Shown one piece after another: positions 1,795 to 55,967 of a DNA stretch of 64,000 nucleotides. Position numbers and translations under genes: made by a program. The notes below the pieces were generated by a model. It worked only from the letters and a program-made list of their open reading frames with translations. It ran no database searches and was not told the origin of the DNA. This DNA is from Escherichia coli (lineage in GTDB: Bacteria > Pseudomonadota > Gammaproteobacteria > Enterobacterales > Enterobacteriaceae): assembly GCF_036507355.1 (NCBI RefSeq), contig NZ_AP027877.1, one strand, 5' to 3'. Each line of letters begins with the position of its first letter. Within the stretch, counting starts at the first letter, position 1.

Positions 1795-3039
1795 ATGGCA
1801 ACACTAACCACCACCCAAACGTCACCGTCGCTGCTTGGCGGCGTGGTGATTATCGGCGGCACCATTATTGGCGCAGGGATGTTTTCTCTGCCAGTGGTCA
1901 TGTCCGGGGCGTGGTTTTTCTGGTCAATGGCGGCGCTGATCTTTACCTGGTTCTGTATGCTGCATTCCGGCTTGATGATTCTGGAAGCTAACCTGAATTA
2001 CAGAATCGGTTCGAGTTTTGACACCATCACCAAAGATTTGCTGGGCAAAGGCTGGAACGTGGTCAACGGCATTTCCATTGCCTTTGTGCTCTATATCCTG
2101 ACCTATGCCTATATTTCTGCCAGTGGTTCGATTCTGCATCACACCTTCGCAGAGATGTCACTAAACGTCCCGGCACGGGCGGCGGGTTTTGGTTTTGCAT
2201 TGCTGGTAGCGTTTGTGGTGTGGTTGAGCACTAAAGCCGTCAGTCGCATGACAGCGATTGTGCTGGGGGCGAAAGTCATTACCTTCTTCCTCACCTTTGG
2301 TAGCCTGCTGGGACATGTGCAGCCTGCGACATTGTTCAACGTCGCCGAAAGCAATGCGTCTTATGCACCGTATCTGTTGATGACCCTGCCGTTCTGTCTG
2401 GCATCGTTTGGTTATCACGGTAACGTGCCAAGCCTGATGAAGTATTACGGCAAAGATCCGAAAACCATCGTGAAATGCCTGGTGTACGGTACGCTGATGG
2501 CGCTGGCGCTGTATACCATCTGGTTGCTGGCGACGATGGGTAACATCCCGCGTCCGGAGTTTATCGGTATTGCAGAGAAGGGCGGTAATATTGATGTGCT
2601 GGTACAGGCGTTAAGCGGCGTACTGAACAGCCGTAGTCTGGATCTGCTGCTGGTCGTGTTCTCAAACTTTGCGGTAGCGAGTTCGTTCCTCGGCGTAACG
2701 CTGGGTTTGTTTGACTATCTGGCAGATCTGTTTGGTTTCGACGACTCGGCTGTGGGCCGCTTGAAAACGGCATTGCTGACCTTTGCCCCGCCAGTTGTGG
2801 GGGGGCTGTTGTTCCCGAACGGATTCCTGTACGCCATTGGTTATGCTGGTTTAGCGGCTACCATCTGGGCGGCAATTGTTCCGGCGCTGTTAGCCCGTGC
2901 ATCGCGTAAACGCTTTGGCAGCCCGAAATTCCGCGTCTGGGGTGGCAAGCCGATGATTGCGCTGATTCTGGTGTTTGGCGTCGGCAACGCACTGGTGCAT
3001 ATTTTATCGAGCTTTAATTTACTGCCGGTGTATCAGTAA
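1795..3039 (+). CDS. mtr: Tryptophan-specific permease Mtr
   Basis: 414-aa ORF with multiple hydrophobic helices; matches Mtr as recalled; synteny next to deaD. Confidence 0.92.
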
Positions 3040-3047
3040 TCAGCGGT

Positions 3048-3138
3048 GCCTTATCCGACATTTCTGCTGCCTACACAATGCCTGATGCGCTTCGCTTATC
3101 AGGTCTATGTAGGACAGCGTTGCCAGCTCGGATAAGGC
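3048..3138. repeat. REP/BIME-like nested palindromic element
   Basis: Outer inverted repeat gccttatccga...tcggataaggc enclosing a REP-like core gcctgatgcgcttcgcttatcaggtc. Confidence 0.6.
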
Positions 3139-3156
3139 TTCCCGCGTTAAGACACA

Positions 3157-4164
3157 CTATCCCAACAACTCTTCCTTAACATCCATCGCCAGCTCAAACG
3201 AATGCAGCCGCGCCTGGTGGTCGAAAATCTGCCCGTTGACCATAATCTCATCGGCGTCGGTTTCGCGCAGGATCGACTGCAAGCCATGACGCACTTTCGC
3301 TTTATCACCTACCAACGACATACTCAGCGCCTGCTGCACGCCATACTGCTCAGACGGTGACCAGAACTGATCCATATTTTGAATCGGCGGCGGCAGTTGC
3401 CCGGTTTCGCCACGGCGCAGCTTCACAAAGGCTTGCTGCATTGAGGTAAACAGAAATTCAGCGTCGCGGTTGCTGTCGGCAGCGATAATATTGATGCACA
3501 CCATCGCGTATGGTTTTTCCAGTCGTGCCGACGGTTTGAAGTTGCTGCGATAAAGATGCAGCGCCTGGAACAACATATCCGGCGCGAAGTGTGAGGCAAA
3601 CGCAAACGGCAGACCAAGCTGCGCCGCCAGTTGCGCGCTGTAAAGGCTGGAGCCTAACAACCACACGGGGATTTGCTCGCCGTAGCCTGGTACCGGGCGC
3701 ACATGCGGATTGGGATCGCGGGCGTCAAACCAGTCCACCAGCTCCGCGACATCGCGGGGGAAATTATCAATATCGCCGCTCATATGACGACGTAGCGCCA
3801 TCATTGTCCGTTGGTCACTACCCGGAGCACGACCCAGCCCCAAATCGATTCGCCCCGGATAGAGTGTATTGAGCGTGCCGAACTGTTCTGCAATGACCAA
3901 CGGTGAGTGGTTAGGCAACATCACGCCGCCAGACCCCAGATGCAGCGTGGTGGTATTCGCCGCCAGATAGCCAATCAATACCGACGTGGCAGCACTGGCA
4001 ATGCCAGTCATATTGTGGTGTTCTGCCAGCCAGTAGCGATGATAGCCGCGCTTTTCAGCCAGACGGGCGAGATCGAGAGAGTGGGAGAATGCTTCTCGCG
4101 CTGAAGAACCTTCGGGAATGGGGGCCAGATCGAGTAGCGAAAACGCAATGGTTTTATCAGTCAT
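3157..4164 (-). CDS. yhbW: Luciferase-like flavin-dependent monooxygenase YhbW
   Basis: 335-aa ORF; recognised as YhbW; synteny. Confidence 0.85.
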
Positions 4165-15140: not shown

Positions 15141-15151
15141 TATCTCTCCGT

Positions 15152-15177
15152 GGCCCCGTTTGAAGAACCCAGGGGCC
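15152..15177. terminator. Hairpin between convergent rsmI and the antitoxin gene
   Basis: Stem ggcccc/ggggcc with a 14-nt loop, lying in the 42-bp gap between the two stop codons. Confidence 0.4.
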
Positions 15178-15182
15178 GCCTG

Positions 15183-15485
15183 CTAAACAATTAGTCTTTT
15201 TAGTGAGCCGAACAGATCGATGCCGATAGCATTTGCATAGCTAAAAACAACATCTAATGTTGGTGAACTTTCTCCTTTTTCAAATTTACTCACCGCTTGT
15301 CGGGTAACACCAAGTTGCTTCGCCACGGCAGTTTGGCTCAGATTGAGGGCTTTGCGTTTTTCCACGAGTTGGGAAAGAACCGCTTTGCGTTGTACAACAA
15401 CATCAAGAGCATTAGCGGTTGCTTCGTCCTTAAGTAATTCTGTTTTCACGTCTTCCCAGTGATGTAACTCGTTATTTTTCTTCAT
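15183..15485 (-). CDS. XRE-family helix-turn-helix protein, putative HigA-like antitoxin
   Basis: 100-aa ORF with HTH signature LSQTAVAKQLGVTRQAVSKFEKGE; 23 bp downstream of the toxin-like gene on the same strand. Confidence 0.7.
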   Translation of the reverse strand: MKKNNELHHWEDVKTELLKDEATANALDVVVQRKAVLSQLVEKRKALNLSQTAVAKQLGVTRQAVSKFEKGESSPTLDVVFSYANAIGIDLFGSLKRLIV

Positions 15486-15508
15486 TTCTATTTCTCCTGG
15501 AGGCTTGC

Positions 15509-15868
15509 TTAGTTTGTCGAAAGTAAGGCCTTATAACGTGCTAAACCTAACTCGATGTTGGCTTTAGGCGTTTTGTTCGTTTTTTTAGCAAAGATATGTG
15601 TGATGACCCATAGCCCTTGATGAAAGTGAAAATAAAAACCCCTTAACCAATGGCTCTGACTATGTGTTTTAATTTCATACATATCCCCTTGAACTTTTTC
15701 GGTATTCACCAGGGAAGAGCAGGGACCTAACTCTTCGAAATCGTCAATAGCAGCAATGAATTCCGCTCGATCGATTGCACTAAGATCAAACAATTCCTTT
15801 CTGGCCACACTTAACAGCATGACTGGAAAATTTTTATCACGTTTTTTGTTAGTCTGATTTTTCACCAT
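15509..15868 (-). CDS. Gp49-like RelE/ParE-superfamily (HigB-like) toxin
   Basis: C-terminal segment FYFHFHQGLWVITHIFAKKTNKTPKANIELGLARY resembles the conserved Gp49-like toxin core as recalled. Start is ambiguous: the ORF extends to 15961 (150 aa); I favour the M32 start at 15868 (119 aa). Confidence 0.6.
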   Translation of the reverse strand: MVKNQTNKKRDKNFPVMLLSVARKELFDLSAIDRAEFIAAIDDFEELGPCSSLVNTEKVQGDMYEIKTHSQSHWLRGFYFHFHQGLWVITHIFAKKTNKTPKANIELGLARYKALLSTN

Positions 15869-15991
15869 CTTTTTGTCAACCTTTAGGTTTACATTGTGAT
15901 GACATAATAACGGAGGACGTTCATACTGAACCGGAACGAAGTGCTCAAAACTCATGAGCACTTTTCTTATTTTTCCGGGCTAAGGGGGATG

Positions 15992-50087: not shown

Positions 50088-50789
50088 CTAGACAGGCAAA
50101 TCTATCAGCAAAGCGCGCAGTGGGGAATCGGCAACCAGCGTAATGTTAGCCTCGTCACGAATAAACGCCCCATCACCGCAGGTCAGCGCCGCTTTCTCTT
50201 CATGATGCGTAATCGCATGAAATTTCCCGTGAATCGATTGCAAATACGCGCGTGGTCCATGCAACTGGAAATTCGCACTTTCGCCTTTGTCGAGCACGAT
50301 ATGGTGCAGCCATACTTGCTGGCGTAATTGCAGGCTTCCCATCGCACCCTCTGGCGAGGCGATTAATTGCTGCTTGCCCATATTAAGCGCCAGCTTTTGA
50401 ATCAGCGGATTCTCTCGCTGCGGGCAGGCGTCCAGCCAAAGCTGCATTCGTGTTAACGGTTTGTCTTTGCTGAGATTGTGTTCGCTATAGCTGACACCTG
50501 GCTGGGTAGAGAGCAGCAACGCCTCTCCGGCGCTGGCCTGAACATGATTGCCTTCGCTGTCGCGATACTCTGCTTCTCCATCCAGAATCACATTTAAAAT
50601 ATCGACTTTGGGATAGGTTCGCGGCTGAAAGGCGGCACCTGGGGCCAGCACTTCCTGGTTAAGCACACGCAGGGAGGCATAGCCTAACAATTTCGGGTCG
50701 AAGTAGTGTCCAAAGGAAAAAGTATACCGGGCCTGCAACCATCCGTAGTCTGCTTGTCCACACTGCCTGGCAGTTCGGGTAGTAATCAT
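50088..50789 (-). CDS. yhaK: Pirin-like bicupin protein YhaK
   Basis: 233-aa ORF; synteny. Confidence 0.85.
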   Translation of the reverse strand: MITTRTARQCGQADYGWLQARYTFSFGHYFDPKLLGYASLRVLNQEVLAPGAAFQPRTYPKVDILNVILDGEAEYRDSEGNHVQASAGEALLLSTQPGVSYSEHNLSKDKPLTRMQLWLDACPQRENPLIQKLALNMGKQQLIASPEGAMGSLQLRQQVWLHHIVLDKGESANFQLHGPRAYLQSIHGKFHAITHHEEKAALTCGDGAFIRDEANITLVADSPLRALLIDLPV

Positions 50790-50893
50790 AATTCTTGACC
50801 TCTCTTTACTTCCTTTTATGGTAAGGGGCTGGACGCTACATTGTTAGCCAGATATTCTGCCCGGTATGTTCAAATTTCCTGAATGAGAACGAA

Positions 50894-51790
50894 ATGGCCA
50901 AAGAAAGGGCATTAACGCTGGAAGCACTACGGGTTATGGATGCGATCGATCGCCGGGGCAGTTTTGCGGCGGCAGCGGATGAGCTGGGACGCGTGCCTTC
51001 CGCACTTAGCTACACCATGCAAAAACTGGAAGAAGAGCTGGATGTGGTGCTGTTTGACCGCTCGGGCCATCGCACCAAATTCACCAATGTCGGGAGGATG
51101 TTGTTGGAGCGAGGGCGCGTTTTGCTGGAAGCCGCAGATAAACTGACTACTGATGCGGAAGCTCTCGCGCGCGGTTGGGAAACGCATCTCACCATTGTGA
51201 CCGAAGCGCTGGTACCGACACCTGCCTTTTTCCCGTTAATCGACAAACTGGCGGCAAAAGCCAATACCCAACTGGCAATCATCACAGAAGTGCTGGCGGG
51301 GGCGTGGGAACGGCTGGAGCAGGGGCGGGCGGATATTGTTATCGCGCCGGATATGCATTTTCGTTCCTCGTCGGAGATCAACTCGCGCAAGCTCTATACG
51401 TTAATGAACGTCTACGTTGCCGCGCCTGATCACCCGATTCATCAGGAGCCGGAACCGTTATCTGAAGTGACGCGTGTGAAATATCGTGGAATTGCGGTGG
51501 CGGATACCGCTCGTGAGCGCCCGGTGTTGACCGTACAGCTGCTGGACAAACAGCCGCGCTTAACGGTGAGCACGATTGAAGATAAACGTCAGGCATTACT
51601 GGCGGGGCTTGGCGTGGCGACGATGCCGTATCCGATGGTCGAAAAAGATATTGCGGAAGGGCGGTTGCGTGTCGTCAGCCCGGAATCGACCAGCGAGATC
51701 GATATTATTATGGCCTGGCGTCGTGACAGTATGGGGGAAGCGAAATCCTGGTGTCTGCGGGAAATTCCCAAACTTTTTAGCGGAAAATAA
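50894..51790 (+). CDS. yhaJ: LysR-family transcriptional regulator YhaJ
   Basis: 298-aa ORF with N-terminal HTH; divergent from yhaK. Confidence 0.85.
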   Translation: MAKERALTLEALRVMDAIDRRGSFAAAADELGRVPSALSYTMQKLEEELDVVLFDRSGHRTKFTNVGRMLLERGRVLLEAADKLTTDAEALARGWETHLTIVTEALVPTPAFFPLIDKLAAKANTQLAIITEVLAGAWERLEQGRADIVIAPDMHFRSSSEINSRKLYTLMNVYVAAPDHPIHQEPEPLSEVTRVKYRGIAVADTARERPVLTVQLLDKQPRLTVSTIEDKRQALLAGLGVATMPYPMVEKDIAEGRLRVVSPESTSEIDIIMAWRRDSMGEAKSWCLREIPKLFSGK

Positions 51791-51802
51791 TATTTGTTAT
51801 TG

Positions 51803-51830
51803 TTAATAAAAAGGGGCGAAATATCGCCCC
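51803..51830 (-). terminator. Hairpin terminator between yhaJ and the yhaI 3' remnant
   Basis: Stem ggggcga/tcgcccc with a 4-nt loop; A-run on the plus strand upstream gives a U-run for a minus-strand transcript. Confidence 0.5.
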
Positions 51831-51874
51831 AATTCTAAGATTAATTTGAACCAAACTTCGGTAATGACTCCAAC

Positions 51875-52378
51875 TTATTGATAGTGTTTTATGTTCAGAT
51901 AATGCCCGATGACTTTGTCATGCAGCTCCACCGATTTTGAGAACGACAGCGACTTCCGTCCCAGCCGTGCCAGGTGCTGCCTCAGATTCAGGTTATGCCG
52001 CTCAATTCGCTGCGTATATCGCTTGCTGATTACGTGCAGCTTTCCCTTCAGGCGGGATTCATACAGCGGCCAGCCATCCGTCATCCATATCACCACGTCA
52101 AAGGGTGACAGCAGGCTCATAAGACGCCCCAGCGTCGCCATCGTGCGTTCACCGAATACGTGCGCAACAACCGTCTTCCGGAGCCTGTCATACGCGTAAA
52201 ACAGCCAGCGCTGGCGCGATTTAGCCCCGACATAGCCCCACTGTTCGTCCATTTCCGCGCAGACGATGACGTCACTGCCCGGCTGTATGCGCGAGGTTAC
52301 CGACTGCGGCCTGAGTTTTTTAAGTGACGTAAAATCGTGTTGAGGCCAACGCCCATAATGCGGGCTGTTGCCCGGCAT
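51875..52378 (-). CDS. insB: IS1 transposase InsB (normally made as an InsAB' frameshift fusion)
   Basis: 167-aa ORF recognised as InsB; overlaps insA in the -1 frame. Confidence 0.95.
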
Positions 52379-52572
52379 CCAACGCCATTCATGGCCATAT
52401 CAATGATTTTCTGGTGCGTACCGGGTTGAGAAGCGGTGTAAGTGAACTGCAGTTGCCATGTTTTACGGCAGTGAGAGCAGAGATAGCGCTGATGTCCGGC
52501 GGTGCTTTTGCCGTTACGCACCACCCCGTCAGTAGCTGAACAGGAGGGACAGCTGATAGAAACAGAAGCCAC
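52297..52572 (-). CDS. insA: IS1 protein InsA
   Basis: 91-aa [46 protein letters not shown]..., recognised as InsA. Confidence 0.95.
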
Positions 52573-52627
52573 TGGAGCACCTCAAAAACACCATCATACA
52601 CTAAATCAGTAAGTTGGCAGCATCACC

Positions 52628-52748
52628 GAATGACATTGATAATAGCGCCGACGATGGCGTTAATCAGAGTAAACATCCAGTACTCTTTACGACGTGCGCG
52701 ACCAGAGAAACCAACATAATTTTTTAATACGGCTAAATACCACTGCAT
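52628..52748 (-). pseudogene. yhaI: yhaI 5' remnant (DUF805 membrane protein), truncated by IS1
   Basis: Minus-strand translation MQWYLAVLKNYVGFSGRARRKEYWMFTLINAIVGAIINVI (40 aa) abuts the IS1 end; paralogous to the YhaH N-terminus. Confidence 0.7.
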
Positions 52749-52991
52749 AAAAACATCCCTTTAATTAAAAGTGACGAAAGTCTATTCCGGGTATTGTGTA
52801 AATGCTATTCGTATCTTTCTTTTTCGGATGTTATAAAGGTTTTGATATTTAAGATAAATACATGGTTATTTTTTTTATAGGTAATTTATATAACGACATT
52901 GAAATATTTTAAATAAACATTAGTAAATTATTCATTCATCAACATAATGATAAAAGCCGGATGAGTCAGACATCCGGCGAGCAGATTTGTT

Positions 52992-53357
52992 TTAAGGTTC
53001 CAGTTTTGGATCAGGTCCAAAGCGGTTTTCGCCTGGCGTACCCGCCTGGCAGTTAAAGACGATGATAATAAGCCAGCCGATAAACGGGATTAAGAACAGC
53101 AGTGCCCACCACGCCGAGCGGTCGGTGTCGTGCAGGCGGCGGAACTGAACCGCCCACCACGGTAAAAACACCAGAATACCGTAGATTGTCGTCAGGATGC
53201 CTTCGCCACCAGCGCGTTGCCAGCCTAACATTTTATCCAGCAGCCCCAGCACGAACGTAAAGATGATGTTGACCAGAATAAACATCCAGTACTCTTTGCG
53301 CCGCGCACGACCCCGGAAACCGACATAATTTTTTAGTACTTTCAGATACCAGTCCAT
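52992..53357 (-). CDS. yhaH: DUF805 inner membrane protein YhaH
   Basis: ORF 52992..53378; start placed at MDWYLKVLKNYVGFRGRARRKEYW (121 aa). Confidence 0.8.
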   Translation of the reverse strand: MDWYLKVLKNYVGFRGRARRKEYWMFILVNIIFTFVLGLLDKMLGWQRAGGEGILTTIYGILVFLPWWAVQFRRLHDTDRSAWWALLFLIPFIGWLIIIVFNCQAGTPGENRFGPDPKLEP

Positions 53358-53488
53358 TTTTGCCTCAATTTTGCTCAATCACTTGTTTTTAAAGCAGCAA
53401 ATTAAGAATAGACGTGAATGAAATGGCAGTAAATATTATCGCGATGAATTAATAAGGAGCTGTGAAGGATAAGGGCAAGCGCAAAATT

Positions 53489-53590
53489 GCCAGATGCGCT
53501 ACGCTTATCTGGCCTACGCGGCCTTTGCAACATATTGAATATAAAAGTTTTGTAGGTTTGATAAGGCGTTCATGCCGCATCCGACATGAA
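53489..53590. repeat. REP pair (BIME) between yqjG and yhaH
   Basis: gccagatgcgctacgcttatctggcctac and inverted ...gtaggtttgataaggcgttcatgccgcatccgaca. Confidence 0.65.
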
Positions 53591-53639
53591 CAACATGCAC
53601 TTAGCTAATTATCAGAGGCACCTCGTAAGGTGCCTTTTT

Positions 53640-54626
53640 TTAACCGAAGCGAACATCTCGTCCATGCGGTTCATCGAGATCCTGCCACGGACCAATTGAA
53701 ATAATCCCCGTAGGGTTGATGGTCTTATGACTGCGGAAGTAATGATTACGGATATGATCGAAATTGACTGTTTCGGCAATTCCCGGCATCTGGTAGATAT
53801 CACGCAGGAAGCCATACAGATTAAGGTAATCGCTGATGCGGTGCTTATCACACTTGAAGTGGGTCACATACACTGGATCAAAACGGACCAGCGTGGTCCA
53901 CAGGCGAATATCGGCTTCGGTTAGCTGGTTGCCGGTCAGGTAACGATGCTGACCTAAAATCTGTTCCAGTCGCGCCAGCGATTCAAACACTTTCTCCACC
54001 GCTTCATCGTAGGCTTGCTGGCTGGTGGCAAAACCAGCTTTATACACGCCGTTGTTAACGGTGTCATAAATCCAGCCGTTAAGTTCGTCAATTTTCGTTT
54101 GCAGGGCTGGTGGGTAGTAATCACCAGCTTTCGCGCCCAGCGCATCAAACGCGGTATTAAACATGCGGATGATTTCTGCTGATTCGTTGCTGACGATGGT
54201 GTGGTTCTTTTTGTCCCACAGCACGGGAACAGTAACTCGTCCGCTGTAGTGTGGATCGGCGTGGAGATAAAGCTGATACAAAAATTCATGTTGATAGAGC
54301 GTGTCTCCGGTTGCTCCCGGAAAACTGTCATCAAAGGTCCAGCCGTTTTCCAGCATCAGCGGGTTCACTACGGAAACGGAAATAAACGGTTCCAGTCCTT
54401 TGAGTTTGCGCATGATCAGCGTGCGGTGCGCCCACGGGCAGGCGAGTGAAACATAGAGATGATAACGATCTTTCTCTGCGATAAAACCGCCTGTGCCAGT
54501 GGGGCCAGGAGCGCCATCGGCAGTGAGCCAGTTACGAAATGCGGAAGCTGAACGTTGAAATTTACCGCCGGTAGATTTGGTATCGTACCAGGTGTCATGC
54601 CAGACGCCGTCAATCAGTTGACCCAT
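53640..54626 (-). CDS. yqjG: Glutathionyl-hydroquinone reductase YqjG (Xi-class GST)
   Basis: ORF 53640..54647; start placed at MGQLIDGVWHDTWYD (328 aa). Confidence 0.88.
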   Translation of the reverse strand: MGQLIDGVWHDTWYDTKSTGGKFQRSASAFRNWLTADGAPGPTGTGGFIAEKDRYHLYVSLACPWAHRTLIMRKLKGLEPFISVSVVNPLMLENGWTFDDSFPGATGDTLYQHEFLYQLYLHADPHYSGRVTVPVLWDKKNHTIVSNESAEIIRMFNTAFDALGAKAGDYYPPALQTKIDELNGWIYDTVNNGVYKAGFATSQQAYDEAVEKVFESLARLEQILGQHRYLTGNQLTEADIRLWTTLVRFDPVYVTHFKCDKHRISDYLNLYGFLRDIYQMPGIAETVNFDHIRNHYFRSHKTINPTGIISIGPWQDLDEPHGRDVRFG

Positions 54627-54695
54627 TTTTCTCTCCTCCAATAGCAAAAACGAGGAGCTTCCTCCTCGTTTTTTATCGTTAAGTATAGCGCGTGC

Positions 54696-55088
54696 TTACC
54701 ACTTTTTATTCAGCAGGCGGTCGATGCTATACGCGCCCGGACCGGTAATTGCCAGCAGCAGGAATCCGCCAGAAATTGTCAGGTTTTTCATGAACATCAG
54801 CGAGTTGACGCCTTCAGCAAAGTTGCTGTGAAATAAAAATGCCGTCAGCAGCGTAAAGCCCGCAGTAAACAGGGCTGTGGTGCGAGTCAGGAAACCGAAC
54901 AGGATTGCCAGACCACCACCAAACTCAAGCAGAATCACCAGCGGCAGCATAAAACCCGGGACGCCCATCGCTTCCATATATTGTTGGGTACCCGCGTAAC
55001 CAGTAATTTTTCCCCAGCCTGCGGTAATAAACAGAATCGGCATTAAAATGCGCGCTACCAGTACACCAACATCTTCTAATTTTTTCAT
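54696..55088 (-). CDS. yqjF: DoxX-family inner membrane protein YqjF
   Basis: ORF 54696..55178; start placed at MKKLEDVGVLVARI (130 aa). Confidence 0.8.
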   Translation of the reverse strand: MKKLEDVGVLVARILMPILFITAGWGKITGYAGTQQYMEAMGVPGFMLPLVILLEFGGGLAILFGFLTRTTALFTAGFTLLTAFLFHSNFAEGVNSLMFMKNLTISGGFLLLAITGPGAYSIDRLLNKKW

Positions 55089-55273
55089 CATACTCTCCAC
55101 TGCGCCACTCAGGCTGCTGATTGTTTTTTTGTGCAAGGGCGCGGTATTAGCGTCGTTGCTGTCGATGGAGAGAATCATAAACGTGGTGAATGATGATTGT
55201 TAGCAAGGAAAACTGTCAAAAATCTTCAAAAAATTTGATGGGTAAGGCCGGAATGGCTCCGGCCAGAGGGAAG

Positions 55274-55573
55274 TTAACCGCGAAGCTGTTGCTGCTTGAG
55301 GGTCGTTTTAACCAGACGCCAGGCGCTCCATACGCCAAAACCGCGTCTGGCCCAGCGGACCAGCATATTAGGATGGCGAATCGTCCAGATCGCCATCACG
55401 CTACTGCCAACCAGCGCCCAGGAGCGCAGACTTAGCAGCATATTCCAGCGACGATCGTAAGCGCCTGTTGCCTCCAGCCATTCACGACGACTGGCGGAAA
55501 GATCCAGCCGTTGTTGCTGGATCTGGCTAAGCAGTTGCGCCTTACGTCGTTCACGTTCGACTTTACTGCTCAC
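55274..55573 (-). CDS. yqjK: Uncharacterized protein YqjK
   Basis: ORF frame 55274..55675; probable GTG start giving MSSKVERERRKAQLL (99 aa); overlaps the yqjE 3' end. Confidence 0.7.
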   Translation of the reverse strand: MSSKVERERRKAQLLSQIQQQRLDLSASRREWLEATGAYDRRWNMLLSLRSWALVGSSVMAIWTIRHPNMLVRWARRGFGVWSAWRLVKTTLKQQQLRG

Positions 55574-55967
55574 GGGACTCCTCCTCGAGCAGCTGCCGAT
55601 CGTTTGCCAGCTCATGGCGTGTATGGCGCAGCAAGGTGGATTTACGCGATTTACGTAACGTCCAGATACCGCCAATCAGTGCCAGTAGCAGCAACACCAC
55701 GGTGGTGGCAATCATCGCATTCAGGCGATATTGCGGATCAACCGCCCAAATAATTAGCACCATCAGGCTCATAAGACCAAATGCAGCGAAAAGCATCGTC
55801 AGGCCCAGCATCAGTAAAAGTTGAAAGAGATTAGCTTTTTCCTCTTCCAGCTCCACCACCGCCAGCCGCAGACGTGTTTCCACCATTTCAACCATGATGG
55901 AAACAATTCGCTGCCCGATGCCCAGAACGCTTTTACCGGGCCCTTGCGCGTGATGAGTGTCCGCCAT
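55563..55967 (-). CDS. yqjE: Inner membrane protein YqjE
   Basis: ORF 55563..56036; start placed at MADTHHAQGPGK (134 aa). Confidence 0.8.
   Translation of the reverse strand: MADTHHAQGPGKSVLGIGQRIVSIMVEMVETRLRLAVVELEEEKANLFQLLLMLGLTMLFAAFGLMSLMVLIIWAVDPQYRLNAMIATTVVLLLLALIGGIWTLRKSRKSTLLRHTRHELANDRQLLEEESREQ

Follow-up and report, generated by a model that had tools for sequence, protein, structure and literature searches.

An IS1 element flush with a 217-bp deletion in yhaI of Escherichia coli and its probable origin by adjacent deletion

The yhaI gene in the stretch of Escherichia coli DNA analyzed here (64 kb, referred to as the window) is interrupted by a single complete IS1 element that has no target-site duplication and that stands directly against a deletion of 217 bp. 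Each of the two junctions between IS1 and yhaI falls at a site that IS1 has used independently in other strains, and comparison with a near-isogenic relative places the insertion and the deletion within this lineage. We consider it probable, if well short of certain, that a simple insertion at one of these recurrent sites was followed by intramolecular replicative transposition of IS1 into the other. The event is ordinary, textbook IS1 behavior by a mechanism that has been known for decades, and the allele was already present in GenBank as a hypothetical protein only.

Anatomy of the IS1 element and of the disrupted gene

The initial annotation of this region described a complete 768-bp IS1 with intact insA and insB lying within yhaI, with the first 40 codons of the gene on one side and the last six or so codons plus the terminator on the other. 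All of these elements were recovered at the positions given in Table 1. The element has its IRR end (GGTAATGACTCC...) on the left and its IRL end (...GGCAGCATCACC) on the right, and the two terminal repeats, whose ends were located by exact search, agree at 18 of 23 positions. The length of approximately 768 bp, the imperfect inverted repeats of approximately 23 bp starting GGT(A/G)ATG, and the insA and insB' frames with a -1 frameshift at an A6C motif are all those of IS1, and the element differs from the IS1A of K-12 MG1655 at 2 of 768 bases. The curated IS1 transposase model NF033558 (cutoff 100 bits) matches both frames, with 145.6 bits for insB and 91.3 bits for the insA frame, which covers the N-terminal part of the model. 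Homologous IS1 copies carry the RefSeq annotation 'programmed frameshift'. With both repeats, both open reading frames and the frameshift motif present, the window element looks active. An exact search for the element ends, aimed at a second IS1 that might carry a partner flank, found no other copy in the 64-kb window, and the one further structural difference revealed by alignment of the window to strain ABW_A19 is something other than an IS.

Table 1 Features of the interrupted yhaI locus (positions in the window)
Feature	Position	Strand	Remarks
yhaJ, intact LysR-type regulator	50894-51790	plus	Convergent with yhaI; ORF and reference comparison
yhaI terminator hairpin GGGGCGATATTTCGCCCC, then T-run	51813-51830	minus	Retained, between the convergent yhaJ and yhaI
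yhaI 3' remnant, 19 nt (nt 339-357)	51841-51859	minus	K F G S N, stop, 1 extra nt; alignment
Complete IS1, 768 bp	51860-52627	minus	IS1A type; transposase genes on the strand of yhaI
IRR, IS1 right terminal inverted repeat, GGTAATGACTCCAACTTATTGAT	51860-51882	plus	Adjoins the yhaI 3' remnant
insB, 167 aa, full length	51875-52378	minus	ORF and NF033558 match
insA, 91 aa, GTG start, full length	52297-52572	minus	ORF and NF033558 match
A6C motif TTAAAAAACTC	52315-52321	minus	-1 programmed frameshift giving the InsAB' transposase
IRL, IS1 left terminal inverted repeat, GGTGATGCTGCCAACTTACTGAT	52605-52627	minus	Adjoins yhaI nt 121
Remnant ORF, 41 aa	52623-52748	minus	yhaI 5' remnant plus IRL end
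yhaI 5' remnant, 121 nt	52628-52748	minus	Codons 1-40 plus 1 nt; alignment to intact yhaI
yhaH, intact DUF805 paralogue	52992-53357	minus	243 bp upstream of the yhaI start

An intact yhaI of only about 46 codons would have spoken against this reading; in all references fetched, however, the uninterrupted gene comprises 357 nt and 118 codons. Alignment of the window to strain E8 and to the near-isogenic genome L033 (GCA_014725255.1) demonstrated that exactly nt 122-338 of yhaI are missing. The deletion estimated at first as about 215 bp is real, and its exact size is 217 bp. The yhaI of L033 starts and ends with the two remnants of the window. Against both references the deletion is flush with the intact terminus of IS1, and the flanks of the element are collinear, same-orientation parts of yhaI. 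The 9-mers that flank IS1, CCAAACTTC and GAATGACAT, agree at one of nine positions, and the 15-bp flanks have no common k-mer longer than 4 nt; there is therefore no target-site duplication. The earlier observation that the flanking 9-mers differ was thus correct, and re-inspection for 8-9-bp direct repeats on the two sides of the element found none. Because this duplication is missing, the event is not a simple IS1 insertion, even though the element is IS1.

A full-length YhaI/DUF805 (PF05656) frame of about 118 codons is no longer present, codons 1-40 and 114-118 being what remains. On sequence grounds, the yhaI of the window is a pseudogene or null allele that lacks codons 41-113 of 118. 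The 5' remnant reads into the IRL end to form the 41-aa ORF, which ends in NVIR followed by a stop and still matches PF05656 (DUF805).

The genes of the region are arranged in the order yhaK-yhaJ-yhaI-yhaH-yqjG, which is reversed relative to K-12. The paralogue yhaH had been described as intact and about 240 bp away, and both statements held; its predicted protein and the YhaH of strain GPEC1446 have identical sequences. yhaJ, the yhaJ/yhaI terminator and yhaH are untouched by the IS1 event. Transcription from the yhaI promoter is predicted to continue into IS1 and to read insA in the sense direction. A promoter-like hybrid that points outward from the element lies at 52614-52643 on the plus strand, with a -35 hexamer (TTGGCA) in IRL, an 18-nt spacer and a -10 hexamer (GATAAT) in the yhaI remnant; it matches at 10 of 12 positions. 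The only product of this putative promoter would be an RNA antisense to the yhaI remnant and yhaH, and nothing hints at its importance.

A separate observation concerns the rsmI-agaI interval of the window (15141-15990), where about 0.9 kb carries two small minus-strand ORFs. The ORF of 100 aa has an XRE-type helix-turn-helix and weak antitoxin-family matches, and the ORF of 150 aa has no family match. The counterpart of this interval in ABW_A19 is the 5.5-kb yraHIJK fimbrial operon, and the 0.9 kb looks like a toxin-antitoxin-like cassette in place of that operon.

Origin in place and records of the allele

The closest relative of the window, L033, represents a near-isogenic empty site in which yhaI is uninterrupted. 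It differs from the window by 1 mismatch in 50527-51859 (approximately 1.3 kb) and by 5 mismatches in 52628-55749 (approximately 3.1 kb), with no jump in divergence across IS1. This near-identity on both sides of the element indicates that the insertion and the deletion arose in place, in this lineage, and not by imported DNA. Leftwards of approximately 50526, inside yhaK and about 1.3 kb from IS1, divergence between L033 and the window rises from about 0.1% to about 1.2%; the breakpoint probably marks an old boundary of homologous recombination that has nothing to do with IS1. Among the genomes retrieved, no relative was found in an intermediate state with IS1 at only one of the two window junctions.

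Queries with the whole region and with each junction separately found the window allele in none of the 5,426 RefSeq complete E. coli genomes, in which the best identity to the window flanks was 99.2% over 22 kb. The right junction is confirmed by an independent assembly, L008 (GCA_905398585.1), whereas the left junction is seen in the window alone. L008 has the identical passage from yhaI nt 121 to 74 bp into IRL; over 3.2 kb, 2 mismatches and 1 gap separate it from the window. GenBank contains the exact 41-aa remnant protein as BED20829.1, annotated as a 'hypothetical protein' (locus tag VEE46_05970) and encoded on an E. coli chromosome of 4.64 Mb. The 41-aa product is on record from 4 contigs, this chromosome among them. 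A search of the literature for work on yhaI and IS1 returned nothing.

Recurrent IS1 targets in yhaI and the surrounding interval

The left junction of the window is the exact junction of simple IS1 insertions found elsewhere, which are flanked by an 8-bp duplication (GAAGTTTG/GAAATTTG) of yhaI nt 339-346. In KE55 and L029 the inserted IS1 is only 91% identical and has the orientation of the window element, while L022-L028 carry two IS1 variants in the opposite orientation; the same insertion is present in CP010163 and in several other genomes. These alleles share with the window its exact junction to the 3' end of yhaI. They differ from it in having the 8-bp duplication, in keeping YhaI residues 1-116 of 118 with the loss of only the last 2, and in having flanks that are not close to those of the window. 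A search by predicted product found the resulting 116-aa YhaI to be widespread, in unrelated backgrounds only. The genomes with this simple insertion differ from the window at 36-37 positions per 3.1 kb, so they are not close relatives and not ancestors of the window allele.

The right junction, at yhaI nt 121, sits among at least four IS1 junctions located at nt 116-128. The right junction of strain GDSC2227PM at nt 122 is 1 bp from that of the window, and it pairs with the junction of L037 at nt 115 as the two sides of one 8-bp target. IS1 junctions in the opposite orientation occur at nt 116 in L018/19 and at nt 128 in L020. The 77-aa downstream product expected of a right-site insertion was found by a search with the predicted product at three loci, none of which is a close relative. 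By-eye inspection revealed no exact IHF-like consensus at this junction. In CP034843 (L017, approximately 2636-3831) an IS5-type element lies at about yhaI nt 136, a few bases from the cluster of IS1 junctions, and yields a 61-aa YhaI fusion ORF. More than 100 draft-genome contigs end within yhaI codons 38-46, where they are annotated as 'partial' DUF805 proteins; these ends fit frequent insertion of repeat elements there, and variable trimming of contigs may inflate the apparent number of sites.

The IS1 junctions of other genomes were mapped onto an IS-free reference. Simple IS1 insertions with duplications of 7-9 bp were found at many positions between yhaJ and yqjG, in strains E8, 11A20CPO008, GPEC1446/IZSBS22, GN04592, NT1F34, 702/18, Z503, FDAARGOS_448 and KE55. 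Three further alleles consist of one IS1 flush with a deletion and without a duplication. GDSC2227PM has lost 246 bp comprising part of yhaI; LH10-b-1 has lost 295 bp including the 3' end of yhaH; and the O104:H4 clone has lost 566 bp including all of yhaI, so that its IS1 is bordered by the yhaJ terminator region on one side and by the yhaI-yhaH spacer on the other (NZ_CP023531, L006, and at least 11 other O104:H4 genomes). These three alleles share with the window the element, its orientation, the locus and the missing duplication. In each of them, however, both junctions are unlike those of the window, and they are therefore independent events and other alleles.

Two IS1 copies in the locus were found in none of the approximately 25 E. 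coli loci fetched. In Shigella dysenteriae 1617 (CP006736, L036) the stretch 982-2975 contains one full IS1, one partial IS1 and one divergent IS1-like stretch, a cluster that replaces the DNA from yhaH nt 263 to yhaI nt 98. Upstream of yhaH (reference 2814-2821), L002 and L009 share one 8-bp target, CAATTTTG, occupied by an IS1A-type copy in one and an IS1B-type copy in the other. The deletion endpoints of L006 and L007 in the yhaI-yhaH spacer (reference 2386 and 2393) are 7 bp apart.

In a simulation of junction clustering, P was approximately 0.001 for three identical sites and approximately 0.03 for four sites within 13 bp, values that are biased and supportive at most, as several of the events were found through queries or protein products built from the junctions of the window itself. 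We tentatively suggest that yhaI may hold two narrow preferred IS1 targets (nt 339-346 and about nt 113-128) and that, together with nearby yhaI-yhaH sites, IS1 repeatedly interrupts or deletes this DUF805 pair across E. coli and Shigella, including O104:H4 and S. dysenteriae 1617. IS1 might be attracted by the local structure of the DNA, or loss of these proteins might be favored by selection.

Probable history of the allele and comparison with known systems

The observed part of the history comprises the anatomy of the locus, the exact deletion, the origin in place and the fact that IS1 has used each junction site on independent occasions. For the steps in between, the initial annotation had offered either an adjacent deletion mediated by IS1 or a recombination of two IS1 copies, and the intact element, flush deletion, collinear flanks and missing duplication support that reading of the pattern. 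Adjacent deletion and recombination between IS copies are also the common sources of missing duplications in general (PMC11708052).

The history that we regard as probable would begin with a simple IS1 insertion in yhaI, either at nt 339-346 or at about nt 113-122. InsAB' would then have driven an intramolecular replicative transposition in which one end of the resident IS1 attacked the other site, which lay on the same chromosome at a distance of approximately 220 bp, and did so in the orientation whose resolution yields a deletion. The 217 bp, one copy of the 8-9-bp target duplication and a second IS1 copy would have been lost as a non-replicating circle, and the chromosome would have been left with one intact IS1 whose ends adjoin unrelated sequences. 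We infer that transposase, and not RecA, made the deletion. As the site hit first, nt 339-346 is slightly favored, because an insertion there costs 2 residues, would be nearly harmless and can persist.

Adjacent deletion by intramolecular target-primed transposition is typical of IS1 and Tn9, and its distal endpoint is a transposition target (PMC9330008). Each of the two window junctions coincides in position with IS1 junctions that arose independently in other genomes, a correspondence whose ascertainment is partly biased. When a target-primed attack falls on a nearby site of the same molecule, one of the two orientations deletes the intervening DNA and leaves one copy of the element (PMC9330008), and replicative movement of IS1 within the chromosome has been observed (PMC12428005). 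In the long-term evolution experiment, 14 of 14 IS-plus-deletion events without a duplication, all of IS150, were traced to an earlier simple insertion (PMC11708052).

A less likely but serious alternative is that two IS1 copies in the same orientation, at nt 339-346 and at about nt 113-121, underwent RecA-dependent homologous recombination that removed one copy together with the 217 bp. Adjacent deletion and two-copy recombination leave the same product, and the sequence expected of this alternative is identical to that observed. Independent insertions of IS1 at both sites are known from other strains, so that two hits in one lineage are conceivable; S. dysenteriae 1617 demonstrates that this locus can accumulate several IS1 copies, and such recombination is a recognized cause of missing duplications (PMC11708052). 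It would, however, take two same-orientation insertions in one 357-bp gene and one lineage plus a third event, where adjacent deletion takes one insertion and one event. In addition, no fetched E. coli locus has two IS1 copies in yhaI, and the surviving IS1, with its 2 differences from IS1A, displays no informative chimerism. Our ranking of adjacent deletion above two-copy recombination is made on prior grounds only.

It is improbable that the allele arose in one step, with an incoming IS1 joining its ends to two nearby targets, or inserting with a deletion, and no simple-insertion intermediate. We know of no one-step insertion-with-deletion mechanism established for IS1, and no observation made here demands one. 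Both window junctions are IS1 target sites, which would suit such a step, and rearrangements without a duplication or an evident two-step history have been proposed for IS5 and IS481; all 14 of the IS150 cases, on the other hand, were insertions followed by deletions (PMC11708052).

Very improbable is an origin from imported DNA, by recombination with a strain that had IS1 elsewhere in yhaI and a crossover inside IS1 that combined flanks from two genomes. Some strains do have mosaic flank similarity (between GDSC2227PM and the window, 2 of 1352 positions differ towards yhaJ and 12 of 2122 towards yhaH), but L033 is nearly identical on both sides of IS1, and its divergence breakpoint lies about 1.3 kb from the element, within yhaK. 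IS1 as the seam between imported and resident DNA was rejected on the same near-identity. An assembly artefact, in which the assembler collapsed a repeat or joined it wrongly at IS1, is the least credible explanation. IS1 does occur in multiple copies, and the window alone shows the left junction; however, L008 has the identical right junction to 74 bp into IRL, the 41-aa product is on record from 4 contigs, and both flanks come from one gene in correct order and orientation.

Whichever route was taken, the window adds one more null allele of yhaI, a gene of unknown function for a small inner-membrane protein, and it provides a clean worked example of an IS without a target duplication. Of some wider interest are the base-pair-precise reuse of two IS1 targets in yhaI and the repeated loss of yhaI or yhaH through IS1 in unrelated lineages. 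In practical terms, the yhaI-yhaH interval might be used to mark lineages or as a natural system in which to test how IS1 chooses its targets.

Deletions adjacent to IS1 were reportedly described in the original gal papers and belong to the classic gal and Tn9 systems. The allele of the window resembles these classic deletions in that it runs from an intact IS1 end to an IS1 target, leaves no duplication and keeps one copy of the element; it differs from them in that it spans 217 bp only, within one gene, and in that its dependence on transposase is one that we infer. The IS150 events of the long-term evolution experiment involve an element of the IS3 family and were followed through intermediates seen in a time series, whereas the window case is known from its end product. 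The likeness lies in the outcome, an IS with a neighboring deletion and no duplication, which was reached there in two steps (PMC11708052).
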